Assembly (NCBI GenBank): GCA_049324575.1
Contig: JBMONI010000020.1
Location: 1-56,878 of the forward strand
Direction: 5' to 3'
Source: Candidatus Omnitrophota bacterium
GTDB lineage: Bacteria > Omnitrophota > Omnitrophia > Omnitrophales > Aquincolibacteriaceae
DNA length: 56,878 nucleotides
Every line of letters starts with the position of its first letter. Within the stretch, counting starts at the first letter, position 1. Shown piece by piece: positions 511 to 38,262 of the stretch. Made by a program: the position numbers and the translations under genes. The notes beneath the pieces are model-generated. The model made no database searches and was not told the DNA's origin. It saw only the letters and a list, made by a program, of their open reading frames with translations.

Positions 511-580
511 AGATCGGGCGGGGGGGGATAACTTCGTCAAAAGAACTGAGGCTGTTTGGCCGTAATATAGGCGGGAGACT

Positions 581-2194: not shown

Positions 2195-2206
2195 CGGGGG
2201 AAGGCT

Positions 2207-3617: not shown

Positions 3618-3647
3618 TTGCCGAAGCGTTGCGTTGTGTGATATAAT
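3618..3647 (+). promoter_or_regulatory. Putative sigma70 promoter of the major pilin gene
   Basis: TTGCCG (3618-3623), 18-nt spacer, extended -10 TGaTATAAT (3639-3647) in an AT-rich intergenic region; SD AAGGAGG at 3673-3679. Confidence 0.55.
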
Positions 3648-3687
3648 TAAGCCGAGTACAAGGAAGTTAAACAAGGAGGTTTTTATC

Positions 3688-4110
3688 ATGTCAAAAATAA
3701 CCTTGATCAGGAAAGCTAAAGGCTTCACCCTGATCGAAATCGTGATCGTGATGGTCATTCTTGGTATTTTGGCCATCGTGGCAATTCCGAAGTTCGTGGA
3801 TCTGACGACCGATGCCAAGATCGCCGCGACGAAGGCGACCTTGGGCAGTGTTCGTTCAGTTCTGGCAGTGACATATGCAAGCAACGCCGCGGCGGGTAAT
3901 GCAGCTTTTCCGACGACCGATCTTACGGTCGGTGATTTCGCGGACGGCAAATTACCGGTGAATAAACTCACCGGCAATGATGGTGCCAAAGCTGTTGCTG
4001 CAGCCCCGGCGGGAACTGCTACGGACGCTGCGGATGGTTTCTGGTTCGTGACGACGACCGGTGTTGCCGGCGCGTATTCGGACGGAACCGAAGATACGTC
4101 GACTTGGTAA
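3688..4110 (+). CDS. Major type IV pilin, MshA-like (140 aa from ATG 3688)
   Basis: Strong SD then MSKITLIRKAKG|FTLIEIVIVMVILGILAIVAIPKFVDL; own promoter and terminator. The track's 3589 start is upstream of the promoter. Confidence 0.9.
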   Translation: MSKITLIRKAKGFTLIEIVIVMVILGILAIVAIPKFVDLTTDAKIAATKATLGSVRSVLAVTYASNAAAGNAAFPTTDLTVGDFADGKLPVNKLTGNDGAKAVAAAPAGTATDAADGFWFVTTTGVAGAYSDGTEDTSTW

Positions 4111-4136
4111 TTGGCAGTTCGTTTTCGCAGTCCAAG

Positions 4137-4174
4137 AACGGGGAGATCGTTCCGATCTCCCCGTTTTTGTTTTT
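4137..4174 (+). terminator. Rho-independent terminator after the pilin
   Basis: AACGGGGAGATCG-TTC-CGATCTCCCCGTT stem followed by a T-rich tract. Confidence 0.85.
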
Positions 4175-4231
4175 AAGTTTATCCCCGAAAAACACGATGA
4201 TTCTAAGAGCGCTTTAACCGTCTAGGCATGG

Positions 4232-5968: not shown

Positions 5969-6576
5969 ACCTCGCATCGTTACCTCCGATCACGAGATCT
6001 TTCGCGATCCGGGCCGGGATCCTGGGCGGGGTCGCTTTGCTGCTCTGTGTTTTTTGGATCTTCCCGCATCTGATGAAGGTCCGGGAACTCCGCAAAGAAG
6101 TGGATGGGCTGTATCTCGAGAATCAGAAGATCCAGGAATCGGTTCTGCTCGAAAAGAATTCGACCCAAAAACTGGAGGAAATCGAGCGCGAATTGAGACA
6201 ATACGAGGCTTCGGTTCCTACGCCGGCGAAGCTTTCCGCGATCATCAATCAGGTCGGAAGCCAAGCCCAGGCCTACAAGCTGGAACTGGTCTCGATCAAT
6301 CAGACACAGAATATCCCCTATATGAAAGTCTATCCGAAATCGATCCAGGCGAAGGGGGATGCCCTGTTCCTGACGGTCCTCAGCCTGGAGGTCGAAGGAA
6401 GTTTTTCGAAATTAGGCCAATATGTGGCCAGCTTGGAAAAGATCCCGTATCTGATCGTTCAGCGAATGCATTTGCAGCGCAAGGGGGAAGAGACCGCGAA
6501 GGCTTTCAATCTTCGGGCTTCTCTCGAGCTGGGTATCCTGATGCGTTTTCCCAAAGAAGAAATGAACTCCGTTTGA
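5965..6576 (+). CDS. pilO: PilO/MshJ-like protein
   Basis: N-terminal TM, coiled coil, 'LEVEGSFSKLGQYVASLEKIPYLI' ferredoxin-like PilO pattern; overlaps the pilM/N stop. Confidence 0.75.
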   Translation: MNLASLPPITRSFAIRAGILGGVALLLCVFWIFPHLMKVRELRKEVDGLYLENQKIQESVLLEKNSTQKLEEIERELRQYEASVPTPAKLSAIINQVGSQAQAYKLELVSINQTQNIPYMKVYPKSIQAKGDALFLTVLSLEVEGSFSKLGQYVASLEKIPYLIVQRMHLQRKGEETAKAFNLRASLELGILMRFPKEEMNSV

Positions 6577-6597
6577 ACGGAAAAAGGAAGGTGGACT

Positions 6598-7137
6598 ATG
6601 GTCGATGATCCGAAGATCTTGTTATCCAAGAAAGTGGAAGGCTCCAAAGGCAATCCGAAGGCCATGATCCAGATCGTGGTGCTGGCGGTCTTGGGCCTGG
6701 TGCTTGCGGTCCTGCTCTTTAATACTTTTCTGGGAGGGAAGAAAAAAGCCCCGCCTCCGGCGGTGCCCGCTGCGGCGGTCCCCGCGCCTGCGGCGGCTGC
6801 GCCTCCTGCGGCTCCCCAGGCGGTGTCGGCTCCTGCGGCCGCTCAAGACACCGCGAAAACGGTCCCTGCTGTTCCGGGAGTCCCCGCCAGCGGTAATGAA
6901 TGGGGTGCCGACGCCTTTCTTTTTGGGGAGGAGGATGAGGAGGATGCTGGAGCGGACGATACGGGTCGGCTGGAGCTCCAGGGCATTGTTTTCTCTTCTG
7001 AAAATCCCTATGCGATTATCGACGGAAAAATCGTTAAAAAGGGTGATGCGATAGCCGATAATAAGATCGTAGAGATATCTCAGGATGCCGTGGTCCTGGA
7101 GGATGGCCAGGGGGAACGCCAGACGCTGAAAAGCTAG
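6598..7137 (+). CDS. PilP/MshK/GspC-like bitopic protein
   Basis: TM, Pro/Ala-rich linker, C-terminal 'LELQGIVFS..PYAIIDGKIVKKGDAI..KIVEISQDAVVL' beta domain. Confidence 0.65.
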   Translation: MVDDPKILLSKKVEGSKGNPKAMIQIVVLAVLGLVLAVLLFNTFLGGKKKAPPPAVPAAAVPAPAAAAPPAAPQAVSAPAAAQDTAKTVPAVPGVPASGNEWGADAFLFGEEDEEDAGADDTGRLELQGIVFSSENPYAIIDGKIVKKGDAIADNKIVEISQDAVVLEDGQGERQTLKS

Positions 7138-7195
7138 CGCGGGGCGGGCCGGCCGGAGATCCTCGGATCTTAACTTGTAGGATCGGCTTGAACGT

Positions 7196-8131
7196 GTGAC
7201 TTTGGATACTCTGACCGAATCGATCGAAAAACCCGCTGAGGTGCTTCTGGACTCTTTCCAGGGCACCGATCGTTTTGTTACCTTGTTCCACGAGTTTTTT
7301 GGGTTCAAAGAGAATCCCTTTGCGAATACTCCCGATCCTTCGTTCTTCTACCTGAGCCCCAGGCATAAAGAAGCGCTTACGAATCTTGCGTTCGGGGTGC
7401 GTCAGCGTCGTGGTTTTATCGTGATCACCGGCGAGGTCGGTTCTGGCAAAACGACCCTTTGCCGTTATTTTCTCCGTTTTCTTCCGCCTGAAATGAAAAC
7501 GGCGGTGGTCCTGAACCCGATGATCTCGAGTTCTCATTTGCTTGCTTCGATCGCGGCCGATTTCGGGATCCCGGAGCCCGGCCGCAGCAAACGGGTGATC
7601 TATAGATCCCTTTTGAAATTCCTCCTCGAGGGGATCGAGCGCCAGCAGAACGCGTGCTTGGTGATCGACGAGGCCCAATGCCTGAGCCGGGACCTCCTGG
7701 AAGAGATCCGTCTTCTTTCGAATCTCGAGACCTCGAAACAAAAATTATTGCAGATCGTCCTGATGGGGCAACCGGAATTCCAGGGCCGGCTTCGCCAGAC
7801 CGGATTGAGACAGCTGCGCGAGCGGATCAGTATCTACATGCATTTGGACGGGCTCGGCATGGAGGAGGTCGGACCCTATATCCGCCACCGGCTCGAAATG
7901 GGGAGCGTCGGTCCGGTCACGGTCCGTTTTCAGGAGGAGGTCATCGAAAAGATCGCGCGTATGAGCCGCGGGATCCCCCGTTTGATCAATACGATCTGCG
8001 ACCGGATCCTGATGGCGGCCTTCGCGGCCGGGGAACGGGAGATCTCGATGGCGCTTGCGGCCGGAGCTTTCCAGGAAATGAACTTTATCTGCGGCGGGGA
8101 GAAGAAACCGCGGGAGGAAAGACCCACATGA
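7196..8131 (+). CDS. ExeA/GspA/MshM-family AAA ATPase
   Basis: FGFKENPFANTPDPSFFY, Walker A GEVGSGKT, Walker B LVIDEAQ, GQPE, GIPRLINTICD; no peptidoglycan-binding tail. Confidence 0.9.
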   Translation: MTLDTLTESIEKPAEVLLDSFQGTDRFVTLFHEFFGFKENPFANTPDPSFFYLSPRHKEALTNLAFGVRQRRGFIVITGEVGSGKTTLCRYFLRFLPPEMKTAVVLNPMISSSHLLASIAADFGIPEPGRSKRVIYRSLLKFLLEGIERQQNACLVIDEAQCLSRDLLEEIRLLSNLETSKQKLLQIVLMGQPEFQGRLRQTGLRQLRERISIYMHLDGLGMEEVGPYIRHRLEMGSVGPVTVRFQEEVIEKIARMSRGIPRLINTICDRILMAAFAAGEREISMALAAGAFQEMNFICGGEKKPREERPT

Positions 8132-8700
8132 GCCTGATCATGGATGTCCTTAACCGGACCAAAACCTCCTCAAATCAGACGATTTCGCCGGGGGTAAGAC
8201 CGCCGGTCCAGAACATCCCGGAGACAGAGACCCGTACGGTGACCCCGGAACAGAGCCGTCCGGAGATCTTTCCTGGGGAAAGCGGAGGAGAGATCGCGGC
8301 CTATGCGAATGTCTTTGTGGTGGGGGCCGAAGCCCCGGCGGGTTCGGGGCCGTCGTTTTTCCGTCTCATGTTTTATATTTTCCCGGCCGTATTCTTAATA
8401 GGCGCGCTCAGTTACGGATGGATGAGAACGCGGCCCGAAGTGCCGGAGACATCGCCGAAGGCGGCGGCATCGCTGGCCGCTTTTTCTTCGGCTATCTTTG
8501 CGAGCGCAGAAAAGAAGCCGGCGCGCTCTATGCTGGAAGGGACCTTTGTCGGAAGCGGCGGGGCTTATTGTATCCTGGAAGGCGATATTTACCGCGTCGG
8601 GGATGTCTGGAAGAAAGCGAAGCTTGTTTCGATCGAGGCGGGGCGGGTAAAGCTTCAAAAACCGAATGGCAGTGAAGTGGAACTGAGGACCGATCCATGA
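8128..8700 (+). CDS. ExeB/GspB-like bitopic protein (real start at ATG 8128)
   Basis: MSLIMDVLNR resembles the GspB-type N-terminus; single TM (IFPAVFLIGALSYGW); C-terminal LEG..VG..AY.IL.G.IY.VGD beta domain; coupled to the ExeA stop. Confidence 0.55.
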   Translation: MSLIMDVLNRTKTSSNQTISPGVRPPVQNIPETETRTVTPEQSRPEIFPGESGGEIAAYANVFVVGAEAPAGSGPSFFRLMFYIFPAVFLIGALSYGWMRTRPEVPETSPKAAASLAAFSSAIFASAEKKPARSMLEGTFVGSGGAYCILEGDIYRVGDVWKKAKLVSIEAGRVKLQKPNGSEVELRTDP

Positions 8701-10256
8701 TGAGAAAAAAATACTTTTGGGTTCAACGGGCGGAGCGGGCACTCGCCTCGGGCTGTATCGTTTTATTGACGCTCGGAGCGCCGGTGGGCGCGGCGGAACC
8801 TGTCGGAGGGGTTCCGGGCCCGGAAAAGATCATCTCGATCAATCTGACGGAAGCCGATATCGGGATCGTTTTTCGCGTGCTGGCGATGGAGGCCGGCGTC
8901 AATATCGTGACGGGGCCTGAGATCAGCGGCAATGTGACGATCCAGCTGACGAATGTTCCCTGGCAGAGCGCTTTTGATACGATCGTGAAAACCTATGGCT
9001 ATGCGTATGAAAAAGAGGGGAATATTTTCTACGTGACGACCGAGGAAGCCATGAGCAAAAGGCGGTCTCTGGGGGTGAGGACCGAGGTCTATGACCTCAA
9101 GTATGCCAAGTTATCGGAAGTGATCGCGGCCTTGGGGGCTTCGGTCCGGAATGTCCGCATCCAGCCGGTGCAAGGGACCAATCAGATCATGCTTACAGCG
9201 TCTCCCTCCGAGGTCGAATCAGCGCGTGAGATCATCAGCCAAGTCGATTTTCGTCAGCCCCAGGTCCATATCGACGCCAAGATCATCCGCACGGCCCTAT
9301 CCAAAGGGGAGAATATGGGCGTGGATTGGGGGACGGCCATCCGCATGAGCGGGGCCCGAAGACCCTGGACGTTCCCGTTTGATGATGACGGTGCCAGCAA
9401 TCAAATATCGAAATTCATGCAGAAATACAGTATGTATCCTCAAGGACAGACGGCCAGCGAGTCGACCTCCACCATCACGGATAGCGGAGGGACTGCGACG
9501 ACCAACTCCCAGGATTTTCCCATGGCGCGCAGTTTCCCTTATATGCAGCCGGAAGATTTCACCTTTGGTACGCTTGATTTTTCACAGTTCTCCGTGGCGA
9601 TCAATATGCTGAAGACCCGGGCGAATACCAAGGTCGTATCCAATCCGAGGATCGTGGTGCAGAACCATCAGCCGGCGAGGGTCCAGGCGGGCCGCGAGAT
9701 CGGCCTTCCGACCTTCGAGCGGAACGAGACGACCGGATCGCTCGAGATCACAGGATACGAGCCCCGCAATGACGGGATCTCCCTCGATGTGACGCCCCAT
9801 ATCATCAATAAAAAAGAGATCCTGCTCACCGTGAAACCGGAATTGACCCGCTTTCTTGGCTTTCAGGAAGTGATCACGGGAGAGAACGTGCTTTCGCCGG
9901 AATTCGAGACGACGGTTGCGGAGACCCAGGTCCTGATCAATAGCGGGGACACGCTCGTGATCGGAGGTCTGATCAATGAGGCCGAGACCGACAGCCACAG
10001 AAAAGTGCCTTATGTCGGCGATATCCCGCTTCTTGGTTGGGTCTTCAAAAGGGTGGCGCCCACCAAAGAGCGGTCGGAGACGATCATTTTTGTGACCGTT
10101 CGAGTTGCCGATGACCGTTTTAATCAAGAGGCGCTTGAGAACTGGGAAAAAACGGAGGAGGCTCTCGCCGAATTCAAGCGCGAGAACGAGAAGTTCATGA
10201 AGTATTCAAAAATGGACAATAAGCTCGAGGAAGCCCTTGAAACCCCAAAAGGATAA
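8697..10256 (+). CDS. Secretin (PilQ/GspD/MshL family)
   Basis: Signal peptide, STN-like ISINLTEADI...NIV, N-domain, 'RQPQVHIDAKII', 'VVSNPRIVVQNHQPA', 'GISLDVTPHI', 'KVPYVGDIPLLGWVF', 'ETIIFVT'. Confidence 0.93.
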   Translation: MMRKKYFWVQRAERALASGCIVLLTLGAPVGAAEPVGGVPGPEKIISINLTEADIGIVFRVLAMEAGVNIVTGPEISGNVTIQLTNVPWQSAFDTIVKTYGYAYEKEGNIFYVTTEEAMSKRRSLGVRTEVYDLKYAKLSEVIAALGASVRNVRIQPVQGTNQIMLTASPSEVESAREIISQVDFRQPQVHIDAKIIRTALSKGENMGVDWGTAIRMSGARRPWTFPFDDDGASNQISKFMQKYSMYPQGQTASESTSTITDSGGTATTNSQDFPMARSFPYMQPEDFTFGTLDFSQFSVAINMLKTRANTKVVSNPRIVVQNHQPARVQAGREIGLPTFERNETTGSLEITGYEPRNDGISLDVTPHIINKKEILLTVKPELTRFLGFQEVITGENVLSPEFETTVAETQVLINSGDTLVIGGLINEAETDSHRKVPYVGDIPLLGWVFKRVAPTKERSETIIFVTVRVADDRFNQEALENWEKTEEALAEFKRENEKFMKYSKMDNKLEEALETPKG

Positions 10257-27347: not shown

Positions 27348-28247
27348 ATGAACTACCGCGAACTGGGAAATACAGGGCTTAAAGTTTCGGAACTGGGCAT
27401 GGGATGCTGGGCCCTGGGCGGCGACAGTTACGGTTCTGTCGAAGAGAAGGATGCCCTGGCGGCTCTCGAAACCGCGTGGGAAGGCGGCGTCAACTTCTTC
27501 GATACGGCGGACATGTATGGTTTAGGCCGCAGCGAAAAGATCGTCGGCCAATTCCTCAAAGGGAAGCCCCGTGAGCGCATTCTTATCGCTTCGAAAGCCG
27601 GACACGATTTTTACCGTGCCGGCGGGATCAAAAAGAACTTCGAGCCGGCCTACCTCCGCCTGGCTTGCGAGAAGAGCCTCGGCCGCCTCGGCGTCGATTC
27701 GATCGATCTCTATCAGCTTCATAGCGCGACCGTCGAGGCGCTTGAACATGGGGAGGCGATCGGCGAGTTCGTCAAACTCCGCGACGAGGGCAAGATCCGC
27801 GCGATCGGCGTAACGGTCTGGAGCGAAGAGGAAGCCCTTGCCGCTCTCCGCGATCCGCGCATCCAGTCCATCCAGCTTATTGTGAATCTGATCGACCGCC
27901 GGATGGTCCCGAAAGTGCTGCCTTCCGCCCGGGCCCAGAAGATCGGCATCCTCGCCCGCGAGCCTCTTGCCAAAGGGCTCTTGAGCGGAAAATACGGACC
28001 CGACAGCCATTTCCCAGAACGGGACCACCGGCAGGGATGGAGCCGCGAGAAACTTCAGGCTGATCTTGCGAAGGTCCGTGAAGTCCAGGAACAATACAAA
28101 GCGCTCGCGCTGCCTCTGAAGACCCTGGCCCTCCGGTATGTGATCGGCATCCCTGGAGTGACCACGGTCATTCCCGGAGCGAAATCCGCCGGGCAGTTTC
28201 GCGATCATCTGGCCGCCATTTCCCAAGGTCCGATCGAAGGCCATTGA
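27348..28247 (+). CDS. Aldo/keto reductase
   Basis: LGNTGLKVSELGMG, FFDTADMYG, SL.RLGVDSIDLYQLH, PL..GLLSGKY, VIPGAK. Confidence 0.93.
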   Translation: MNYRELGNTGLKVSELGMGCWALGGDSYGSVEEKDALAALETAWEGGVNFFDTADMYGLGRSEKIVGQFLKGKPRERILIASKAGHDFYRAGGIKKNFEPAYLRLACEKSLGRLGVDSIDLYQLHSATVEALEHGEAIGEFVKLRDEGKIRAIGVTVWSEEEALAALRDPRIQSIQLIVNLIDRRMVPKVLPSARAQKIGILAREPLAKGLLSGKYGPDSHFPERDHRQGWSREKLQADLAKVREVQEQYKALALPLKTLALRYVIGIPGVTTVIPGAKSAGQFRDHLAAISQGPIEGH

Positions 28248-28347
28248 AAATTAAAAGGTAAGAATTGAAAATGGATCTGCGGAAAAGGCGGCTTTTCCGG
28301 AGCCCCGATCGAAGGCCATTGAAAATTAAAAGTTAAGAATTAAAAAT
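28230..28347 (+). repeat. 43-bp direct repeat (28230-28272 and 28305-28347) containing the last 6 codons of the AKR gene
   Basis: CCGATCGAAGGCCATTGAAAATTAAAAG(G/T)TAAGAATT(G/A)AAAAT, 2 mismatches, 75-nt period. Confidence 0.9.
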
Positions 28348-28428
28348 CGATTCGGAAAAAAGACAACTATTTCCGGCTCTCTCTTTCCGGCCTTGAATTC
28401 TTCATTCTTCATTCTTCATTCTTAATTT
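28321..28428. repeat. Heptad-periodic inverted-repeat element (AAGAATT / TTCTTCA type)
   Basis: A-rich left arm GAAAATTAAAAGTTAAGAATTAAAAAT; right arm TTCTTCA x3 plus TTCTTAA (28398-28425). Confidence 0.75.
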
Positions 28429-28511
28429 CTCTACCAAGGTTTTTCCCTCTCTTGTCGGCCGATTCTCCTTTTTTAAAAATTAGGGATAAGTCCTTTTAAG
28501 CAAGTTTATAG

Positions 28512-28649
28512 CTATTTAATGCTATATATAAGTAGCATATTAATTAAATAGAGCGTCTATAAGTCTATATAGATAAAGAAGATATGAATAACTAAAAAAA
28601 GATATAAAGAGATTTGAAATATGTCATTTAATATGGTAATAATTATAAG
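28512..28649 (+). promoter_or_regulatory. AT-rich upstream region of the giant gene with a palindrome and a candidate promoter
   Basis: CTATTTAAT/ATTAAATAG and ATGCTA/TAGCAT arms (28512-28551); ATGTCA-N17-TATAAG (28621-28649); SD GGGAG at 28712-28716 before GTG 28724. Confidence 0.4.
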
Positions 28650-28723: not shown

Positions 28724-31700
28724 GTGAAAAGAGCCGTCGCTTTATTTGCGTTGGTGACGTTTGTGGTGACGAACCACTGCGTGAGCCCTGCGTTCGGAGC
28801 CGGGGTCTGGACGGATGCTGCAAAACCCGCGATCCGGGACGCCATTCCGTCGGAGGCTCTTCGCACTCTGCGGATCCCCGATCATCTCGGCACCGTCGAA
28901 GAACATTTTGAAGGGACGAAAGGCAAGACCGTGCTCGTCATCCAGGATGCGCATTCGATCCCCGACGCCCAGCTGGCCATTCATCGCCTGATCGACCATT
29001 TCCGCCGCCAGTACGGTGTGCGCCTCGTTGCGGTCGAAGGGGCTTCCGCCAAACTCGACGCCGTGATTTTCCGCGCATTCCCGGACAAAAAACTCCTGAA
29101 GGACGTTTTCAAAAGTTATCATGAGAAAGGCGAGCTTGCCGGCGCCGCGGCAGCCGCCGTTTTTGGCGATCCGGGCGCCGATTATGTCGGCGTCGAACAA
29201 TGGGGGCTTTACGAGGAGGGGGTCAGCCTGTATCTGGCGGCGATGGAAAAACAGCCGGCCATTCTCGAAACGCTCCGCGCCGAGCAGGAGGCCCTCGATC
29301 GGAAAAAACAGGAGATCTATTCGGCCGAGCTTCTCGAGGTCGACCGCGCGCTGGAGGCCTTCGAGGAAGAGCACGCCGATATTCTCGGGACCCTGAAAAC
29401 GCTTGCGAAATATCGCGCGCCCGAGGCCGGTTCGGAGATCGCCGCCCTTTTGCGCGAGACCGGGCACCCCGTTTCCGATCTCGACCAGGCGAATATCGAA
29501 GTCCGGGAGCTTGGGGCGATCGTCTCGAAGCATTTGCGCGCTTTGCCGCCCGATGCCCTTTCGAAAGAGAAACTCAGGGCTTTCCACGAAAAAGAGCAGG
29601 CCTTCATGACCTCTGCCATCACGCCCCATGCCTTCGGACTTTTTCTGAAAGAGGTCGCCGAGGCCGAAGGGCTCAAAGTCGAGACCTCCGAGGCGCTTGC
29701 CTCGCTGATGGACGGACAGCAAAAACTCCGCGATATCAAAGGAACGCGCTTTTTCGAACGTTTTAACGATTACGCGGCTTCCGTCAAGGAAAAGCTCTTC
29801 GCCAGCGACGACGAGCGCGATCTCGACGCCCAGACCGACGAACTCGGCCTTTGGCGGCGCTTTGCGATGCTCGAACTCTCGAGCAAAGACTGGGAGCGGA
29901 TCAAGGAAGAATTAAGAATTAAAAATGAAGAATTGAAAATGCAGGATCGGGAAAAGACAAATCCTCTCCTTCGTTCTTCACTCTTAATTATTAATTTTAA
30001 ATTATTCGCTGCGCATATGGCCTTCTACATGAACGCCGAGGCCCGCGACGGCGAATTCATGAAGAACCTTTCGCGCGAGATCGGCGGGCGGCAGGCCAAG
30101 TCGGCCGTCTTCGTGGCGGGCGGTTTCCACGCCGAGGCGATGACGCGCCGTTTCCGCGAAGCGGGGATCTCCTATGTGCTCATCATGCCGAAGATCGGTC
30201 TTTTGCCCGAGAACCCCGCTTACCGCGACCATATGCGGGGGCTCGTTTCCTGGCGCGATTATTTCGAGGTCGAGAACAGCCGCATCGATCTCTATAAGGC
30301 GTTCGTGCGCGCGACAAGGGACAAGCTGCTGGGGCGGGAAGGACGCATGGCGAAGGACGAAGGGCGCGGCGCGTCCCTCGTCTCTCGGTCCTCTTCTTCA
30401 GGTCTCTCCGATCCGCGCCTTCTCAAAGATTGGCGCGACGGGATCATCCGTGAAATGGCCGGCCAGGGCGCGATCGAACGCTCCGGCGAGTACACAAAAT
30501 TCCTGGATGAGGTCGCGGGTCCGCAGCCGAAGGACCCCGAACTTGAAAAACGCCTTGCGCGCGTGGACGCTTTCGTCGAAGGCCTCAAACGCCTCGAGTC
30601 CGAGAACGCCATCACGCCCGACAATGTTTTGAAGCTATTTCAGCCTGCGACGGTTCAGGATCCGTGTGCCGTGGTTCCTTTTGCCCCAGGCAACAGTGTC
30701 CCGGGCGGGTGGGTAGTTCGGCCTTCCGGCTTGGCCGTCCCTCTTGAATATGCCGAGCCCACAGCCGTCAGTCCTCAGTTGCCAGATCAACCCGGGGCCG
30801 TAGCCCCAGTATCCGGTCCCCGCGCGGAAACGCGGATGACCCCATATAAGTATAATGTAACAGCTGCAATAAGGAGAGTTAATGCATCGCAACAAAAGGC
30901 TGCATCCAAAGACAGGAGTTATATTTTCAGCCGTTTTTTGACCCCCGTTTTTGGCGCGGTGATCGCATTGCTGCTCATCGATGCACTTACCGGAGGCGGT
31001 ATCGTCAATGTAGTGGTTGCTCTCTGGAAAAGTCTGCATCTTTTTGAAGCGCCGATCTTCCAGCCCGCAGCAGCGGCGGGTATTTTTGGTTTGTTTGGTA
31101 TCCCTGTTGGTTCCCGCGCGGAAATACGGAGTCCGTTCCTCGATTTTATCGGTCGGCAGAGCTTTTGGACGCTTTTGACCGTCGGATTGGTTTCGACGCC
31201 GACCATGTTTGCGGTTATTCAAATGAGTCTCGCGAGCGGAGCCGTGGTGGCTTTTCTTTCGGGGCTTTTGGGGGGAGGCGTTTTTGCGTCCGCGATCCTT
31301 TACCTGATGTATCTGGCGAATCTTTACCGTGGGAATCTGTCGGAATTTGCGGGCGGATTGATCCGCAACGCTTCCTTTCTCCGGCCGGTTGTCCAGATGG
31401 CGGAAGAACGTTTCGCCGAACGACTTCATGACGATGTCGCGGCGCATTTCACGGAATCTTATCTCATTGAGCCCGAGCGAATGCAGGATTTTATCCGGGG
31501 ATGGACACAAGCGAGTTTTCTTCGAGGGTTTTTCCTGTCCGAACAAAGCCCAATGATCTCGAATATTTCCGTAGATGCACAAAGTCCGGAGGGGCAACCG
31601 TCAACCCTCCGCATGAATTTCAGAAGCGGAAGGGAAATTCTCCTTAAGTGGACCGTCGACGGAGAACGCGCGAAAGTTGAGACTGTGATCCAGCCTCGCG

Positions 31701-34700
31701 GCCCAATTTCCCGCGCGGAAATGAGAAATGGGGCTGCGAAGGCCCTCGCCTTGGCAGGGACCGCAGGGATCCTGTATGTGGCTCTGATGATTGCACCGGA
31801 CCTGCGCGGAGTTCCGCTAGCGCCTGATTTGACCGTTCCCGCAATAACGGAACATATCAATTCGATCATCGGTCTTTTGGGGAACATGTTTCAAGGCCTG
31901 TTCCTGTGGGCGCGGGAGAATCCAGGGCAGGCTTTCGGAGGCGTTGTCGTGTTCGGAGCGCTTCGCCAGATTATTCGTTCATCTTCCCGCGCGGAGTCGA
32001 GGATGGTGCCGGCTGAAGCGGAAATACAGCCCGAAGGGCTGACGCGGCCTGTGATTCTTGGTCTCGTTACCTTGACGACGGTGGTTGTCTTTGGCGCGGT
32101 GTGGGCGGGATTCGCGGTCCTGACGGGTTTATTCGGCGCTTCAGTGGCGCAAGCCGTGATGTTGCCTTTGTTGGCGATCATCGTTGTCGGGGCGGGTTTT
32201 ATGTATGCCCGTCCCCAAGTCTTTACCGGGCTCAAAGGATTTGTCCAGGACTTGCGAACGGAGCAGCCTGATGATACGGAGGCTATTGCCCGGCTGACAG
32301 AACTGCAAGAGACCGCAACGGAGATCCTGAGAAGCCAAGAGACCCTAGCCGGAAAGACGGCATCTGCAAGAGAAAAAAGAAACGCCCGTGATAATCTCGA
32401 TTTTTTGATCCGGGGGCTTCCGGTATTTATTGCAGAAGCGAGGCTAGTTTCGGAATTTGTCGACGATGCCTCCTTGAGTGTTGATTTGGAGCAGCTAGCG
32501 GATAGTTTTGGGCAATTCATCGGGAATGCAGATCTTCGAAAAGAGCAGATCATTATATTGCCCAAGGATTTGAAGGAAGCTTTAGCCGAAATATCCGAGA
32601 AACTTCGAAATAGTATCGAAGCTTTGACCCGCTTGCCCGGGGGTGAGCAGGACCAGGTCGCAGCTGAGCCGCGAGACATTCCGATGTGGGCCGTCTTTAT
32701 GGCGGTGCTCGGGATTCATATTTTGGTCATCGGTTCTGCGCTGCTTTACCAATATTTGAGAAGTCCGAGCGGCGCTCAAGCGCTTGCCGATGTTTCTGCG
32801 GTTACGGCGCTTGCGGGCGCCATGCTGGCCTCTTACAGCCCCTTCGCGATCCCGCTCGGATTTCTCGCGGGCATCGTTTATCTCATCATGGGCACCCGCG
32901 ACCGCCGCGCTGGAATAACCGCTGATGGACAAGAAGGCCCTTCCCCGACAGCCGGCCGCGCCGAGAATCGGATGGTGGAAAACCAGGGGGGGGGTGCGCC
33001 ATCCATAGACATACTAGCTTTGAGACTATTAGCAAGATTTTCTCCAGAAGAATTGAAGACATTAGCGGCGGTATCCAAAATGAATCCCGAGGCTCTTGCG
33101 ATCATTGCCGCCAGTCCAATTTTCCGCCAGACATTAGAAGCCCTTGCCGCTCTTAATCCACTTGGGAAGCAAGAAGTCGAAATTTTGGGACCAGGGAGAC
33201 TCGATTTGACGTCAGGCGGTCGCGCGGAGATAAGAATGGCGATGGCTCGTCGGCAATTTCTGAAAGCCGCGGCGAGCTTTGCTATCGCGAGTTTCATGGG
33301 GGGATGTTCTCGTTTTTTCATCCAGTCCGAAAGACCTGACTATCCCTTCCATCGTTATGCTGGGCCGCTTGATCTCGATGCCATGGCGCGCGTTCCGCAG
33401 TTGGCCGGGGCGCTTTCGCGTGATGAAATAAAACGGTTGGGGACCGAGCCCTTTCCGGACCGTCATAAAGACCGCGAAGGACTGGGGAAGGTCAGTTCAT
33501 TGGATGAAGCAGAGTTTGCGAGAAAGATCTCGGCGATCGCGGCGATCCTGGATGAGAAAAACAGAAATGAATTCAGTCGGGAGGAACGTTTTAAAGCAGC
33601 GCGGCTTTTGTGGAGGATCTTTGAAGAGGATGATAAAGCCATGGGGACGGATGGAGAATATTTGGGAGGGCGGCCGCTCCAGGCGTTGCAAGCGGTCGTG
33701 ATCGCATTGACGAAGATGAGCCCCGAAGATCTGGAGCTGAAAGTGGTCGATTATCCTGTGAGACTTCATGCTCTCTATGACCGTGTCATGAATTTTTTGG
33801 CTCGCAAAGCCGATCGCGGTCGCCCCCGGTCGATCGACGATCCAAAGATCGAACCGCGCTATCACGGCATGGTTGGACAAGCCCATCTTGCGGATGTCCT
33901 TGCTGCGGCGATCGTTTATACGCATCCGGCATTTGAACGCCTGCGCTATTCCATATTGAACGGGGCGCATTCCATGAGAGAGGCTGCGGAAGCCAAGCTC
34001 AGGGCCTATAGCGGAGCTTCTCGAAATCCGAAAGTTATCCTCAATGAGGGGTTCATGCCTTGGAAAACGACCGATGATGCTGATGCGATTGCAGCTCAGG
34101 CGCTGGGGGAAGAACCTCAGCGTGCGGGCGTGGTATCAGACATGAGCGCGCTTGATGAGACCGATCAGGCGATCGCTGAATATTTCAAATACCAGCGAAA
34201 GAACAAAAAGCTTCTTTTGAGCAATGAACCGGCAGTCATAGAAAAATATTTTAATGCTGCCGGGATTCCGATCCGCGATCCGGGGGCGGTAACAGAACGA
34301 TTGAGGCAACTCTACAATCAGGCGTTGAAAGAGGTCAGTAACAATGGTCTCCAAAGATTTTCGTCATTAGAACTTTTAAATAAGATGGAAAGCTTATTGC
34401 TTACCCCCCGCGCGGAGTTGAGGAAGCGTGAGGGAACGCCAGCAACTGCGCGACAACCCCGGAGGGCGAGGGGACAGAAAGCCGCAGCTCCAAAACGAGC
34501 GGAGCGGAAAAAAAGAACATCCGTGGCCCCAATCACCGGATATCCTCAAATTACATTCTGGGGTGAAATAGAAGGGCCGGGAGTAGGAGTTCCTGCTGCC
34601 GTTCCATGGAAAAATGAAAAATTTCCAGAGCCTACACCGGGGCGAGAGCCGAGTTTGCCGCGAGAAGGGCCGAACTTTACCGCGGCGGTGACATTGGAAG

Positions 34701-37700
34701 TCGCGGGGGAGCCGGTCATTGTTTCCAGCGGGACCGAGATGGAAGAGCTTATTCGCGAGGAAGAATTCGTTCGGACTCCAGAACAGGCGAAAATCCAAGT
34801 GACGGCGCTTATTACGAGCATAAAGGAGAGATTTCCTGCGTTGGAGCAGACGAAGCTTGATGCGCTGCAAGAAGCTCTCGAAAAACGGCTGAAAACCTAT
34901 ATCCAGGAAGGGGATGAAACAAGTATTTTAAAAGCCGGGGCTTTGCTGGCGGCAGTGCGCATTCTTTTCGAACGCTATGAGGTCGTCCTTCCTGCGGAAG
35001 CAGTGACTTCTCCGAAGATGCAATTGATATCTCAGGGGAGGATCGAAGAGGCTCCTTTGAGCGATTCGAGCCGATGGTTCGAGAATGCGGGTGGTTGGCA
35101 GATCTCTGTCGATTCCGAAGACGCCCTGATTGCAGCTCCTGCAAGACCCGCTGAGCCTGAAGCTCCTGCTTCCGAAGAGCCGGCGGAAGCGATGTCCTCG
35201 ATCGAAGTCTTCAATGAAAATGGCGAATTTATGGGGATGGCTCCTCAAGAGGTGATCGATGCGGTCCTCGCGGAAGATTCCCGGGCCGGACAAATGTTTT
35301 CCCAGGGGGGATTCATTACCATTATCCAGGATCGGGGGACATGGGAAAATAAAGCGCAGGTGTTTGGATCGCGGGGAGTTGTTTTCATTATTCAGATGAA
35401 TGTTTCCTATGCGGCCTATGATGTTGATGGCCAAGCCCGGACTCAACTGACCGATGCGGAACGCAGTCTGGTCAGTGACGGATTGACGGCGGCTTTCGGC
35501 CAACAGGAAGAGATCCCACCGCTCGGTTTTGTCGAGCTTCGCCGAGGAAGTGTCCCGCCCGAAGAACGTCCTGATTCGCTGTTTGTTTTTGATGTGGTCA
35601 GCGAAGATGAGCAGCCTGTTTTTACGGGGATCGGTTACAAAACCAAGCTGGAGGATGTGACTCCGGACGGAACTGTGCGGCCTGCTGTTCCGCCGCCTTC
35701 AGCGGCTCCTTCTGCCGCGACACGTTCCACCCAGGTTGATTTCAAACTCGGCAGTATCAAGGAGTTTTCACTATTGACTGGCACGGATACCGTGGCAGTG
35801 CATATGGACACAGCAGGGACTCCGGGTGGGGCGATCATCGATATTCAGGGCCTTATCCGAGATGATCTGAATCCTCAGCGGGATATCGACAGGGGCATTC
35901 AGATCAATAATGTGGTTAAGCTAGGTGATTGGAAAGAAGATGAAGAAGGCCGATTGGCAGGGATCCGTATTGGAGAGGCAAGTCTTACGGATCTCGGAGA
36001 GTTCGCGCAGAGTAATGGTTTTGATCAGCCCATTCGGTCCTGGGAAAGAGTGATTCGGGTTGTGTCGCATGAAGCCCCTACGGAGGAAGGCGGACAGGTC
36101 ATCGAAAGAGCGAATATTGAGGCTGCGACACGGGCAGTTGTCGAGCTGGCCGCCAAAAATGGCGCGAAAAAGATCGTGATGCCACTTTTCGGGACAGGAA
36201 GCCGAGAAGCATCGGCCCGGGATGTCGCGAGCTGGATGCGCGCGGCTGTCGAGGCTTATATCCAGGAAACGGGATCTCCGATTGAAATAACGATCGTGAC
36301 TAACGATGAGGAAATCTTTGGCCAGATCAAAGACATGGCTTCCTCCCGCGCGGAGACGAGGGCGGATATCGGCGAGATGATTGAGCAGGTCAATAGGATC
36401 CTCGACTCAATTCCAATGCCGTCACCGAGAATGGAGGATCTTAGCGGCGTGCGGAATGTTTTCGCCCCCCAAAATACACGGGTGGGATGGCTTGAAATGG
36501 GAGCGATGCTCCGCGCTTTCGAAAAACACCTTGCCAACCGCGCCGGGGATAGGACACCCCTTACGAACGACGAGCTCGAAATCATTCGCTTTGTGTTGGA
36601 GAAGTTGCGCTTGTCGGAGAACAAAGGACGTCTTGAAGCGCTTCGACAAATGACGCCGGTTGTTGCGAAGAAATTGGAGAACATTGATCTGGATCAACTG
36701 GAAAACCAGGTTAACGCGCGACTCGGTCTTACAACGGCGGCGATTCCGGTTGCGAACGGTGCCTTGGCGGGAGCTTACGGTAACCTCTTCAAAACCGCTT
36801 ATGTCATGTTCGAGACACTTTATGCGAGCAATGTAGCCGGGGAAGTGCTGACGGCGCTTCAGGGCGATCTCGATCCTTACGCATTGATCGAGGCCATGTC
36901 GGCCCTTGCGATCGTTTTAGCGGCTGATCAGATCGAACAAAAAACCCCTGACATGGTTCTGGACATGCTTCAAGGGGCGCTCACTGCTGTCGAAGAGCGA
37001 CTTTCATCCTTCCGCGCGGAGTCGAGGATGGTGCCGGCTGAATTTGCTCGCGCAATAGCTTCACGCTCTCAAATAGGCGGACCGGTCCGGGGCGCAGAAA
37101 GAGAGGGGTTTGCTCTTGCGCAATTGAACGTAGCGAGAAACGCGATCCTTGAAGCATTAAAGAGGGTCCCAGGCGATTTTGAGGCAGAAGTGAGTTTGGG
37201 GAATGAACCGGCGGCTTGGATCACTTCGAGTGAACTGAGCACGCGGATCCAGAATAACCCGACAGGGACCGAGAATGAGCGGAATCAACTCAGGAGGCTT
37301 ATTGATGCTGCGAATGAACTTTTGAATTTACATGCAAAACAACCTGCGGCAAGGCCCCGCGCGGAACAGAGGCAAGCCGAGATGCCGAAGGTGGTGGTGG
37401 ATCTTGCCGGTGAAACGGCCCAGGTCATTTTGACGGGGAGCGATCCGGCCAGGGTGGCGGGGAGGATCCCGGAGATCCTCAGGATGCAGGGGCTCTCGGC
37501 CCAGGTATTCGGAACTATGGTCCGGAACCAGGCGGCGGTCGCGATCCAGCGGCTCGAAACGGTTGGTGTCGTGAGCCCCTACTTGGTGACGCCGGAAGTG
37601 GCGCGCGCCGTGGTCGATTTTGTGATCGAGAACTTCGTCGCCCGGATGAATTTGATCAGCGAGGAAGAGGGGAATTTCGTGATCGGACTCGATACGGAAG

Positions 37701-38224
37701 TGACGAACAGTTTCTCGGAGGCTTTGGCCAAGGTCGCGCCTTATATCCAGCTTGCGCTGGTCAACCGCGGCATGCTTAAGCAAATGGGCCGGGTGAGGGG
37801 GATGAATGTCCAGGGAGTTCCGGATTTTGAGAACATCAGAAAACCTGCCATGGCCGATAATGAGACGATCCCCGTGGTGAATGGCGAGGCGAGTCCGGAT
37901 TATCTCGGGACCAATCCGATCGTGATCGGGATCACGACCGAGGCAGGGGAGATGACGCGGGAGGATCCTTATCTTCTGGTCGTTGAAAATGTCATTAAAC
38001 TGCTTGCGGCAGTCTCGCTTGCTCGACGCGTGAAGAATACCAAGATCAAGGACGATCCTAGGGTTCAGAGCGCGATGGAGGCCGAACTGATTAAAGATCT
38101 TTTTGAGACCGGGGTCGAGACGGTCATTTCCTTCAAGAATGGTGTCCTGTCAGTGAACCGGCCGGCACTCTACGACTTCATCAAGGATTTCGCGACCCGC
38201 AAGGCGGTCGAGAAAGCCGCGTAA
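28724..38224 (+). CDS. Giant (3166 aa) modular exported protein: TraB/Tiki/ChaN-like N-terminal domain, modules delimited by RAExR motifs, Macro-like domain
   Basis: Uninterrupted 9.5-kb ORF with SD; Sec signal MKRAVALFALVTFVV...PAFG; QDAH / VAVEG / RD / GGFH motifs; ten in-frame R-A-E-x-R motifs. Confidence 0.9.
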   Translation: MKRAVALFALVTFVVTNHCVSPAFGAGVWTDAAKPAIRDAIPSEALRTLRIPDHLGTVEEHFEGTKGKTVLVIQDAHSIPDAQLAIHRLIDHFRRQYGVRLVAVEGASAKLDAVIFRAFPDKKLLKDVFKSYHEKGELAGAAAAAVFGDPGADYVGVEQWGLYEEGVSLYLAAMEKQPAILETLRAEQEALDRKKQEIYSAELLEVDRALEAFEEEHADILGTLKTLAKYRAPEAGSEIAALLRETGHPVSDLDQANIEVRELGAIVSKHLRALPPDALSKEKLRAFHEKEQAFMTSAITPHAFGLFLKEVAEAEGLKVETSEALASLMDGQQKLRDIKGTRFFERFNDYAASVKEKLFASDDERDLDAQTDELGLWRRFAMLELSSKDWERIKEELRIKNEELKMQDREKTNPLLRSSLLIINFKLFAAHMAFYMNAEARDGEFMKNLSREIGGRQAKSAVFVAGGFHAEAMTRRFREAGISYVLIMPKIGLLPENPAYRDHMRGLVSWRDYFEVENSRIDLYKAFVRATRDKLLGREGRMAKDEGRGASLVSRSSSSGLSDPRLLKDWRDGIIREMAGQGAIERSGEYTKFLDEVAGPQPKDPELEKRLARVDAFVEGLKRLESENAITPDNVLKLFQPATVQDPCAVVPFAPGNSVPGGWVVRPSGLAVPLEYAEPTAVSPQLPDQPGAVAPVSGPRAETRMTPYKYNVTAAIRRVNASQQKAASKDRSYIFSRFLTPVFGAVIALLLIDALTGGGIVNVVVALWKSLHLFEAPIFQPAAAAGIFGLFGIPVGSRAEIRSPFLDFIGRQSFWTLLTVGLVSTPTMFAVIQMSLASGAVVAFLSGLLGGGVFASAILYLMYLANLYRGNLSEFAGGLIRNASFLRPVVQMAEERFAERLHDDVAAHFTESYLIEPERMQDFIRGWTQASFLRGFFLSEQSPMISNISVDAQSPEGQPSTLRMNFRSGREILLKWTVDGERAKVETVIQPRGPISRAEMRNGAAKALALAGTAGILYVALMIAPDLRGVPLAPDLTVPAITEHINSIIGLLGNMFQGLFLWARENPGQAFGGVVVFGALRQIIRSSSRAESRMVPAEAEIQPEGLTRPVILGLVTLTTVVVFGAVWAGFAVLTGLFGASVAQAVMLPLLAIIVVGAGFMYARPQVFTGLKGFVQDLRTEQPDDTEAIARLTELQETATEILRSQETLAGKTASAREKRNARDNLDFLIRGLPVFIAEARLVSEFVDDASLSVDLEQLADSFGQFIGNADLRKEQIIILPKDLKEALAEISEKLRNSIEALTRLPGGEQDQVAAEPRDIPMWAVFMAVLGIHILVIGSALLYQYLRSPSGAQALADVSAVTALAGAMLASYSPFAIPLGFLAGIVYLIMGTRDRRAGITADGQEGPSPTAGRAENRMVENQGGGAPSIDILALRLLARFSPEELKTLAAVSKMNPEALAIIAASPIFRQTLEALAALNPLGKQEVEILGPGRLDLTSGGRAEIRMAMARRQFLKAAASFAIASFMGGCSRFFIQSERPDYPFHRYAGPLDLDAMARVPQLAGALSRDEIKRLGTEPFPDRHKDREGLGKVSSLDEAEFARKISAIAAILDEKNRNEFSREERFKAARLLWRIFEEDDKAMGTDGEYLGGRPLQALQAVVIALTKMSPEDLELKVVDYPVRLHALYDRVMNFLARKADRGRPRSIDDPKIEPRYHGMVGQAHLADVLAAAIVYTHPAFERLRYSILNGAHSMREAAEAKLRAYSGASRNPKVILNEGFMPWKTTDDADAIAAQALGEEPQRAGVVSDMSALDETDQAIAEYFKYQRKNKKLLLSNEPAVIEKYFNAAGIPIRDPGAVTERLRQLYNQALKEVSNNGLQRFSSLELLNKMESLLLTPRAELRKREGTPATARQPRRARGQKAAAPKRAERKKRTSVAPITGYPQITFWGEIEGPGVGVPAAVPWKNEKFPEPTPGREPSLPREGPNFTAAVTLEVAGEPVIVSSGTEMEELIREEEFVRTPEQAKIQVTALITSIKERFPALEQTKLDALQEALEKRLKTYIQEGDETSILKAGALLAAVRILFERYEVVLPAEAVTSPKMQLISQGRIEEAPLSDSSRWFENAGGWQISVDSEDALIAAPARPAEPEAPASEEPAEAMSSIEVFNENGEFMGMAPQEVIDAVLAEDSRAGQMFSQGGFITIIQDRGTWENKAQVFGSRGVVFIIQMNVSYAAYDVDGQARTQLTDAERSLVSDGLTAAFGQQEEIPPLGFVELRRGSVPPEERPDSLFVFDVVSEDEQPVFTGIGYKTKLEDVTPDGTVRPAVPPPSAAPSAATRSTQVDFKLGSIKEFSLLTGTDTVAVHMDTAGTPGGAIIDIQGLIRDDLNPQRDIDRGIQINNVVKLGDWKEDEEGRLAGIRIGEASLTDLGEFAQSNGFDQPIRSWERVIRVVSHEAPTEEGGQVIERANIEAATRAVVELAAKNGAKKIVMPLFGTGSREASARDVASWMRAAVEAYIQETGSPIEITIVTNDEEIFGQIKDMASSRAETRADIGEMIEQVNRILDSIPMPSPRMEDLSGVRNVFAPQNTRVGWLEMGAMLRAFEKHLANRAGDRTPLTNDELEIIRFVLEKLRLSENKGRLEALRQMTPVVAKKLENIDLDQLENQVNARLGLTTAAIPVANGALAGAYGNLFKTAYVMFETLYASNVAGEVLTALQGDLDPYALIEAMSALAIVLAADQIEQKTPDMVLDMLQGALTAVEERLSSFRAESRMVPAEFARAIASRSQIGGPVRGAEREGFALAQLNVARNAILEALKRVPGDFEAEVSLGNEPAAWITSSELSTRIQNNPTGTENERNQLRRLIDAANELLNLHAKQPAARPRAEQRQAEMPKVVVDLAGETAQVILTGSDPARVAGRIPEILRMQGLSAQVFGTMVRNQAAVAIQRLETVGVVSPYLVTPEVARAVVDFVIENFVARMNLISEEEGNFVIGLDTEVTNSFSEALAKVAPYIQLALVNRGMLKQMGRVRGMNVQGVPDFENIRKPAMADNETIPVVNGEASPDYLGTNPIVIGITTEAGEMTREDPYLLVVENVIKLLAAVSLARRVKNTKIKDDPRVQSAMEAELIKDLFETGVETVISFKNGVLSVNRPALYDFIKDFATRKAVEKAA
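29909..30003. repeat. Heptad-periodic hairpin element embedded in-frame in the giant gene
   Basis: GAATTAAGAATTAAAAATGAAGAATTGAAAATG...TTCTTCACTCTTAATTATTAATTTT; AT-rich island in GC-rich CDS, similar to 28321-28428. Confidence 0.8.
30338..30399. repeat. Second heptad-periodic hairpin in-frame in the giant gene (GAAGGAC / GTCCCTC type)
   Basis: GAAGGAC GCATGGC GAAGGAC GAAGGGC - spacer - GTCCCTC GTCTCTC GGTCCTC TTCTTC. Confidence 0.65.
30821..37372 (+). repeat. Ten dispersed in-frame R-A-E-x-R motifs (CGC GCG/GCC GAR NNN MGR)
   Basis: Motif starts at 30821, 31115, 31712, 31988, 32957, 33221, 34409, 36347, 37013, 37358; 31987-32017 and 37012-37042 are identical over 31 bp. Confidence 0.92.
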
Positions 38225-38230
38225 AAAAGC

Positions 38231-38262
38231 AGCTGATAGCTTTTAGCTGGCTAGCTTTTAGG
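38231..38262. repeat. Heptad-periodic AGCT-core tract directly after the giant gene stop
   Basis: AGCTGAT AGCTTTT AGCTGGC T AGCTTTT AGG. Confidence 0.5.

Follow-up and report, generated by a model that had tools for sequence, protein, structure and literature searches.

The question raised by this locus is whether a very long bacterial gene encodes one protein or many. The stretch of DNA analysed here (positions 1 to 56,878 of contig JBMONI010000020.1 from a Candidatus Omnitrophota bacterium; 56,878 nt, hereafter the window) contains a giant open reading frame (ORF) of 3166 aa with a GTG start (28724..38224, plus strand), as taken from the ORF list and its translation. The first-pass annotation of this ORF, here called the query, described a pentapeptide R-A-E-x-R that recurs ten times between unrelated modules, and proposed a constant N-terminal domain, an exchangeable array of cargo and a terminal domain. 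We asked whether the product could be a polyprotein that is cut at the repeated motif, and by which enzyme. The query belongs to a family of polyprotein-like genes that is present in several copies in Omnitrophota genomes. We put at about 0.55 the probability that these polyproteins are cut at the junctions, with the conserved N-terminal domain (the head) as prime candidate for the protease.

A pentapeptide repeated between unrelated modules

Translation confirmed RAExR at all ten positions that had been listed. The junctions, numbered 1 to 10 and all on the plus strand, are RAETR at aa 700 (30821..30835), RAEIR at aa 798 (31115..31129), RAEMR at aa 997 (31712..31726), RAESR at aa 1089 (31988..32002), RAENR at aa 1412 (32957..32971), RAEIR at aa 1500 (33221..33235), RAELR at aa 1896 (34409..34423), RAETR at aa 2542 (36347..36361), RAESR at aa 2764 (37013..37027) and RAEQR at aa 2879 (37358..37372), the last one directly before the tail domain. 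The distances from one junction to the next were 98, 199, 92, 323, 88, 396, 646, 222 and 115 aa. Met directly follows the motif in 5 of the 10 copies, the residues that precede it are P, S, S, S, G, G, P, S, F and P, thus mostly small, and aa 1-699 are free of it, all in agreement with the annotation. Ahead of junction 1 lies a Pro/Gly/Ala-rich linker (aa ~643-699; 30650..30820, plus strand), whose modelled part (to aa 659) is of low confidence.

The repetition is real and highly non-random. Ten copies were observed where 0.18 were expected from composition (Poisson P ~1e-14), and 20000 shuffles of the protein yielded at most 4. RAE.R was the most repeated pattern of three residues, a gap and one residue, while no such pattern exceeded 5 copies in 300 shuffles. 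Only 4 further RAExR copies were detected in all six frames of the rest of the 56.9-kb window (47 kb), and no repeat families other than the junctions were found in the protein. The eleven modules delimited by the junctions are indeed dissimilar to each other, the best pairwise BLASTP match having E = 0.29.

A family of giant genes in Omnitrophota

More than 150 giant ORFs (~1500 to >5000 aa) of Candidatus Omnitrophota share a signal-like start, the head, the tail and R[AS]ExR junctions, the R[AS]ExR sites lying between mostly unrelated modules. A database search with the whole protein returned 71 proteins of 1800-5200 aa, each covering only ~20% of the query, and a scan of genomic loci, limited to a single genome for each species, yielded 116 relatives; 79 of these loci were retained. 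All source-named protein matches come from Candidatus Omnitrophota metagenome-assembled genomes, except one labelled Endomicrobia. The organism-named loci among the 79 are all Omnitrophota except one labelled Planctomycetales, and the rest are 'uncultured bacterium' assemblies. Several copies are found per genome, with 5 loci in CAYGIT, 4 each in JAHFHF, CAYWRU, CAYRBY and SICL, and 3 in JACKFM, and the copies are often tandem. At four loci (L007, L015, L021 and L030) the ORF upstream of the matched head was seen to be the 3' portion of a second member, which has the same motif and ends -[AST]A.

The constant N-terminal domain was recovered in 71/71 database matches and 79/79 loci, which align to aa ~40-650 at their own N-terminus. 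The terminal domain proposed for the other end is a ~285-aa C-terminal domain that is always terminal and was present in 21/29 of the closest matches. A Sec-type signal is predicted at the start of nearly all members, and in about half of the members it is the sole transmembrane segment. In the query a putative signal peptide can be read from the residues themselves, rather than from a dedicated predictor, at aa 1-26 (28724..28801, plus strand), where MKR is followed by a hydrophobic core and AFG/AG. In one relative (P0002, aa 34-40) the signal-peptide region ends …CPIQARAEVSP, with the near-junction ARAEV at the predicted signal-peptide cleavage region. An additional search with a spliced core alignment of the head gave only short fragments and added little. 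An apparent stand-alone head in L076 was rejected as an artefact of a masked N run, since the ORF continues in another frame with RSEVR sites. In the literature, including a search for Omnitrophota together with 'polyprotein' or 'Tiki', no earlier description of the family, head, tail or motif was found, the coverage of the searchable literature being incomplete.

The junction motif across relatives

R[AS]ExR was the top repeated gapped pentamer in most relatives. It reached 13 copies in the protein matches and 18 in the genome loci, where 0.1-0.5 per protein were expected; the 71 relatives carry 278 sites, or 288 including the query. The first site was always past the head; the last internal one typically lay ~290 aa short of the C-terminus, immediately ahead of the tail. 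Over the 288 sites the consensus is [S/A/P] at -3 to -1, then R-[S>A]-E-[L/V/M/…]-R, then [S/A/T] at +1, followed by an acidic stretch. The flanks thus look linker-like, with small and then acidic residues, and pLDDT was below 50 at the N-terminal edge of the tail model as well as where the linker ahead of junction 1 begins. In some genomes the motif is looser, [RK]-[S/T/P/A/G]-E-[L/M/V/I]-R. Junction spacing in the family has a median of 344 aa and a range of 4-2658 aa.

A motif no commoner than in other large proteins would have spoken against the proposal. This was not the case, as its density was 1.98 per 1000 aa in family ORFs and 0.25 in flanking ORFs (~8-fold). Moreover, 30 of the 35 flanking copies are in ORFs with at least 2 copies, and at least 19 of these 30 in ORFs whose ends show them to be neighbouring family members.

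Paralogous loci within a genome agree at the fourth position of the motif. This position was L in 13/13 sites over four CAYRBY loci, L in 13/13 sites in CAYSSX, and mostly A in CAYGIT. The match rate at this position was 0.28 within genomes vs 0.15 between genomes, a value reached by 0/500 label permutations, and such sharing among paralogs is consistent with a recognition factor that they have in common. Four relatives (P0031, P0055, P0064 and P0065) have another junction, [AG]-x-S-L-G, with 7-10 copies per protein in the same positions as R[AS]ExR. In L066 (JACKFM010000005.1), aa ~1350-2375 consist of tandem 21-aa units (PVTDVTGLHKSFDSLD-RTEMR), each ending RTEMR; these mini-modules resemble a multi-copy peptide precursor.

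Module turnover at the junctions

The proposed exchange of modules was borne out among the relatives. Number, order and identity of modules vary, and only 101/448 interior modules have a relative in any other member. When 87 family proteins were split at the motif, the first modules were related in 87/87 and the last modules in 34/71, many loci being truncated. Colinearity of the homologs over their full length, which would have spoken against turnover, was not seen. Exchange at the junction boundaries themselves was seen in P0017 and L063, whose heads are 69% identical and which share two modules, the other cargo being wholly different. The shared modules align from 2908-3230 to 1789-2108 and from 3222-3770 to 2902-3433, with ends a few residues from junctions; they are adjacent in one of the two proteins and have two unrelated modules between them in the other. 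In two relatives that were checked, the Pfam domains were located inside modules and 0 extended across junctions. Judged by their sequences, the modules behave as cassettes bounded by junctions.

The cargo

In the query, modules 2-5 (aa 705-1411; 30836..32956, plus strand) are four membrane modules with several predicted transmembrane helices, and no homologs of them were found. Module 7 carries a twin-arginine (Tat) signal and a lipobox (MAMARRQFLKAAASFAIASFMGGC; 33236..33307, plus strand) from the first residue past junction 6. A parallel case is P0031, in which a Tat-lipobox signal stands ~10 residues past an ASSLG junction. Module 8 ends with a Macro domain (aa 2424-2531; 35993..36316, plus strand), the sole Pfam match in the protein. 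The match to PF01661 scored 25.4 bits against a cut-off of 22 (E = 1.5e-5) and covers profile positions 42-117 only. A search of the Protein Data Bank (PDB) sequences gave a weak match of this region to chain TTHA0132 (2dx6), deposited as a hypothetical protein, which we take to be a macro-domain protein; a phmmer search of modules 7, 8 and 9-10 against the same sequences gave nothing beyond it.

No homologs of the interior (aa 705-2883) were found at E <= 0.001 among 5.8 billion proteins, none of modules 7-8 in a full HMMER scan of 1.84 billion representatives, and nothing except the Macro domain in a Pfam and NCBIfam scan of the whole protein. We concluded that the cargo is almost entirely orphan, because the homolog searches of the interior came up empty apart from the weak Macro match. 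The relatives carry varied Pfam cargo, including M48+ABC1, LRR, methyltransferases, HATPase_c, Fic, PP2C, FHA and HEAT, as well as radical SAM, adenylate kinase, phosphoglucomutase, thiolase, kinases and GGDEF.

The head as a probable, divergent TIKI-superfamily hydrolase

The conserved head (aa ~40-650; 28841..30673, plus strand) has a TIKI/ChaN/EreA-like core that is split by a ~270-aa helical insert. In 26 aligned heads H77, E105, Y163, R441, G466, G467, H469 and Y500 were invariant and D75 was present in 23/26, the query reading D75-A-H77 and G466-G467-F-H469. By regular expression, the H-27-E and GG[FYH]H motifs were both kept in 65/71 relatives. The TIKI catalytic set consists of Glu-x-His, Glu, and the His in G-x-x-H (PMC6254334). 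The head has the corresponding D-x-H, E (+28) and G-G-x-H of the TIKI/ChaN/EreA superfamily, with E105 located 28 residues after H77 and an Asp (D75) in place of the first Glu. The pairs His85/Glu113 in Bcr135 and His3902/Glu3930 in RRSP are both also 28 apart, and RRSP is a proven sequence-specific TIKI endopeptidase (PMC6254334). In the AlphaFold2 model of the head (pLDDT 85.7), the core of which is alpha/beta, H77, E105 and H469 are placed just after strands 69-75, 101-104 and 460-466. An acid-x-His, Glu (+28) and Gly-x-x-His at strand ends are what the head has in common with the superfamily (Tiki1/2, RRSP, Bcr135, EreA-C, ChaN and HopBA1). It differs by the ~270-aa insert, and there is no known superfamily member that stands at the start of a polyprotein or cuts the chain of which it is part.

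Among the relatives, the head of P0067 matched PF04187 ('Haem-binding uptake, Tiki superfamily, ChaN') with 34.8 bits vs a cut-off of 27.7 (E = 2.2e-8), and three further heads gave weak matches to PF04187, PF05139 (erythromycin esterase) or PF18950 (DUF5694). A head profile, full-length or core-only, found nothing among PDB sequences. From these results, the head is probably a divergent TIKI-superfamily hydrolase that is predicted to be active, and by analogy with RRSP it may be a peptidase.

The tail

The conserved tail domain (aa 2884-3166; 37373..38221, plus strand) has an alpha/beta fold in the AlphaFold2 model and ends -KAA. In an alignment of tails the terminal Ala was the sole invariant residue, and the tail is therefore not an enzyme candidate. 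Foldseek gave only generic Rossmann-like matches (E >0.03), and Pfam scans of 22 tails revealed no common family. The C-termini of nearly all family members (38213-38221 in the window) read -[AS]-A, mostly -KAA, -QAA, -SAA or -QSA, whatever the junction type, and such ends recall the -LAA end of the ssrA degradation tag. The idea that the -AA terminus mimics a processed end was not supported, since [AG]xSLG proteins also end -AA. Some tails carry the junction motif within their last ten residues (…ARAEVRKAA).

How the chain may be processed

On the interpretation that we favour, one transcript would give one chain with a signal-like start, a TIKI-type head, variable and unrelated cargo and a constant tail ending -AA. 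The junctions would be the recognition sites of a sequence-specific endopeptidase, by which one translation product would be cut into many proteins. From the query this would yield the head and the tail and, from the part between them, four small membrane proteins, a Tat-exported lipoprotein, a Macro-domain protein and several orphans. Our candidate for the protease is the head, which has a complete D-x-H/E/H set. It is put forward because it is the sole conserved part with enzyme-like invariants, because it would be made first and because its superfamily includes a site-specific endopeptidase. The position of the Tat and lipobox signals right after junction 6 favours cleavage, since these signals normally need a free N-terminus. 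We infer the occurrence of cleavage, the position of the cut in the motif and the enzyme responsible; cleavage at the motif by whichever protease seems to us likely, while the assignment of the head as the enzyme is tentative and stays somewhat below an even chance.

A number of observations weigh against processing by the head. Cleavage itself is deduced from sequence patterns. The query head did not match the Pfam models of the TIKI clan, and Foldseek of the head gave weak matches (3b55, 2rad, 6xcs and 5t09; E 0.2-3.7, TM-score <=0.3), the TM-scores being low because of the large helical insert. Among these structures, 3B55 (Bcr135) and 5T09 (HopBA1) are listed as members of the TIKI superfamily, in which the erythromycin esterase family is also counted (PMC6254334); 2rad and 3b55 are one and the same structural-genomics target, and the enzyme in 6xcs is the erythromycin esterase EreC. 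The head is predicted to be exported by its Sec-type signal, yet the relatives' cargo is largely of cytoplasmic type (kinases, radical SAM, adenylate kinase, GGDEF). Given this cargo, and given that a Tat signal such as that of module 7 presupposes a precursor in the cytoplasm, a single head in the periplasm would be unable to reach all junctions. The close relatives P0004, P0012 and P0013 have few strict sites (1-2), and in distant clades, whose heads are intact, no motif was detected, a search there for a third junction type also giving none. Hydrophobic starts after junctions were not generally enriched (3.4% vs 2.3% in controls). The idea that modules generally start with signal peptides was rejected on these figures, and the two Tat-lipobox cases remain as anecdotes.

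The distribution of motif types also weighs against processing by the head. The heads of the [AG]xSLG proteins form no group of their own and have their nearest relatives among the R[AS]ExR heads, and the giant genes adjoining two [AG]xSLG members (L083 1-970; L087 1-893) have the same SLG motif and a tail ending -AA. Motif type and variant therefore follow the genome and not the head lineage, as would be the case if the recognition factor were common to a cell. This favours a trans-acting factor or concerted evolution, and points to either one protease in trans, be it one of the heads or another enzyme, or heads that evolve in concert.

A separately encoded protease common to the polyproteins of a cell could cleave the junctions, and the head would then serve another purpose, for example on substrates of the envelope or of a target cell, in export or in anchoring. 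Such an enzyme would agree with the genome-specific motifs, with a predicted location of the head outside the cytoplasm and of many junctions inside it, and with the catalytic residues kept in heads of clades that have no detectable junction motif. However, neither the window nor the other loci with listed neighbours showed a conserved protease gene nearby, the M48 genes a few kb off in the window and in L003 not being present throughout, and each paralog keeps its own intact head, which would be unnecessary if the head played no processing part. We regard a separate protease as unlikely. Alternatively, the product may not be cleaved at all and may be one giant membrane-anchored or secreted multidomain protein, in which the motif is a linker element such as a docking site. 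Tat and lipobox signals at the first residue past a junction would be hard to use in an uncut chain, and tandem 21-aa units bounded by the motif, unrelated and mostly orphan modules swapped as cassettes, and two unrelated motif types in the same positional role also argue for cutting. Still, nothing demonstrates cutting, giant uncleaved proteins are common in Omnitrophota (bioRxiv 10.1101/2023.11.21.568195), and the motif in some C-terminal tails could be a binding element. We find an uncut protein quite unlikely.

The motif could also be primarily a DNA-level recombination site for cassette exchange, with the pentapeptide as its translated footprint. In the query the first Arg codon of the junction is CGC in 10/10 cases and the Ala codon GCG in 9/10, well above the codon usage of the ORF. 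The junction DNA (30811-37372 in the window) varies much less than the peptide would allow; it reads (C)CGCGCGGAR, in full CCGCGCGGAR, and contains the palindrome CCGCGCGG, and junctions 4 (aa 1089) and 9 (aa 2764) share an identical 27-nt stretch encoding RAESRMVPA. Junction codons were also homogeneous in L001 and L002, and modules are exchanged at junction boundaries. In L003, however, the 12 junctions show synonymous variation at all five codons and yet encode the same peptide motif, which places the constraint on the peptide and led us to reject a DNA-level element as the general cause of the motif. Furthermore, the peptide is conserved over many divergent genomes with differing codons, and the S/A alternation and the preferences at flanking residues are protein features. 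The DNA uniformity may reflect recombination between junctions or a homogenisation within the genome, which would be secondary and could in turn make such recombination easier; it may add to module turnover but cannot be the sole reason for the motif, and a primary role of the DNA is very unlikely. Co-translational separation of the chain without a protease, like that by viral 2A 'StopGo' peptides, would suit a short, protein-level motif located exactly between modules, no protease having been proven. Against this, the motif is unlike 2A (D-x-E-x-N-P-G-P), and two unrelated motif types with genome-specific variants fit enzyme specificity better than a ribosomal effect. We know of no StopGo-type mechanism established in bacteria, and consider such a separation scarcely plausible here.

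Locus and surroundings

Upstream of the giant ORF, a promoter-like site (TTGAAA-18-AATAAT; 28614..28643, plus strand) is located in a ~470-bp AT-rich intergenic region, and a Shine-Dalgarno-like AGGGAG lies on the plus strand 8 nt before the GTG start. A terminator-like hairpin (38230..38249, plus strand) begins 6 nt past the stop codon. All three are consensus matches only. In the AT-rich spacer 5' of the ORF (28240-28430) a ~30-nt element, gccattgaaaattaaaag.taagaatt.aaaa, is present twice, near 28240 and near 28317, and a short cattctt run is found at ~28398-28424.

The genes upstream encode GGDEF, radical SAM, DeoC aldolase and aldo/keto reductase proteins, and those downstream ThiF/MoeB-rhodanese, DUF748, Era, PanE, M48 peptidase and LytB. 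Type IV pilus/type II secretion genes, ThiC, GcpE and AddAB are located farther off in the window. Chromosomal housekeeping neighbours were also seen at L001-L003, and there was no sign of a mobile-element context (phage, plasmid or conjugative element) among the neighbours in the window. The type IV pilus/type II secretion-like set (T2SSE ATPase, T2SSF, PilM-like and secretin) occupies 566-10253, 18-28 kb upstream of the giant ORF, and in L001 two PilZ genes stand directly upstream of the family member. Such secretion loci and pilZ genes have been reported near Omnitrophota giant genes (West-Roberts et al., bioRxiv 10.1101/2023.11.21.568195).

Comparison with known systems

The first-pass annotation likened the arrangement to MARTX and polymorphic toxins. 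MARTX toxins are very large single chains with constant ends and shuffled unrelated effectors, and an in-built protease cuts the inter-module linkers (PMC3153235, PMC6254334). A variable array between constant ends is present here too, and the MARTX effector RRSP is itself a TIKI-fold site-specific endopeptidase, but the defining parts of MARTX are absent. The query contains neither RTX/glycine-rich repeats (Pfam and NCBIfam scan) nor an inositol-phosphate-activated C80 cysteine protease domain (Pfam scan), and it has an N-terminal Sec-type signal where MARTX has a type 1 secretion signal. Its candidate protease, the TIKI-like head, stands at the N-terminus, in contrast to the internal cysteine protease domain of MARTX, and the junction is a strict pentapeptide in contrast to a Leu-containing linker. 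The cargo here includes membrane proteins and a Tat lipoprotein, and the several paralogs per genome, often tandem, are a further difference. The comparison with polymorphic toxins did not hold, as the C-terminus is conserved here and the downstream gene encodes ThiF/MoeB-rhodanese, with no variable toxin end or immunity gene.

Gingipains RgpA and Kgp of Porphyromonas gingivalis have a signal peptide, a protease near the N-terminus, modules released by Arg/Lys cuts and a conserved C-terminal export domain. Their protease is a C25 cysteine protease, the export domain is a type 9 secretion domain, the adhesin modules are related repeats, and the organism belongs to a different phylum. No Pfam match to a C25 peptidase or to a type 9 secretion C-terminal domain was obtained in the query or the tails, and the modules here are unrelated orphans, not related repeats. 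Viral polyproteins, for example those with potyvirus NIa-Pro sites, have in common with this family a single ORF, an embedded protease (for which the head is the candidate here) and a short junction consensus that varies by lineage; the family differs in its location on a cellular chromosome, in its many paralogs per genome and in its hypervariable cargo, as opposed to a fixed gene set.

Embedded peptidases are said to release parts of polyvalent proteins (reportedly a proposal of Iyer et al. in 2017). Polyvalent proteins of phages and conjugative elements join 2-15 unrelated enzymatic domains in one chain with high turnover (PMC5512222). Those proteins are encoded on mobile elements and delivered with DNA, whereas the gene here stands among housekeeping genes and has a fixed head, a tail and a junction motif.

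Omnitrophota giants of the 'Archaeovorins' and 'Dockerin-type' kinds have signal peptides near the N-terminus and are suspected of being processed; they exceed 10,000 aa, C39 or S8 peptidases have been proposed for them, and their cleavage points are unknown (West-Roberts et al., bioRxiv 10.1101/2023.11.21.568195). The head, the tail and the junction motif are not described by West-Roberts et al. The domains of the Dockerin-type giants are HEAT, HATPase_c, radical SAM, PPDK_N, NUDIX, GGDEF, HAD and AAA_5 (bioRxiv 10.1101/2023.11.21.568195, Supplementary Fig. S1 legend). This is nearly the same domain mix as in the cargo of the present family, and the Dockerin-type giants may use the same junctions.

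The defining parts of the MARTX, gingipain and polyvalent families that could be tested, namely RTX, C80, C25, the type 9 domain and a mobile context, are absent. As far as can be judged from its sequences, both the family and its junction motif are probably new, but the general kind to which they belong, that of modular and probably self-processed polyproteins, is known.

Significance

The analysis of Omnitrophota giant proteins has been blocked by missing cleavage points (bioRxiv 10.1101/2023.11.21.568195). The present family supplies a junction motif, candidate protease residues (D75, H77, E105 and H469) and natural controls in the [AG]xSLG genomes, by which cleavage becomes testable. If cleavage is true, it would constitute a new bacterial polyprotein system with several copies per genome, would give a rule to split thousands of unannotated residues into foldable, searchable units, and would add a new role for the TIKI superfamily. 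The exchange of junction-bounded cassettes is a clean case of modular protein evolution.

In a wider perspective, which we consider rather unlikely, the Omnitrophota, which are ultra-small and suspected of living on other cells, may use exported effector polyproteins throughout the phylum. These would combine a Sec signal, a TIKI-protease head, hypervariable cargo and a genome-set pentapeptide, their cassettes would be exchanged at junctions with the help of junction DNA homology, and their products, once released, would work either in the envelope of the cell that makes them or inside a host or prey cell. If true, bacterial genes would be organised here in a way that forms a new class, an 'operon in one ORF', and the TIKI fold would have a new function.

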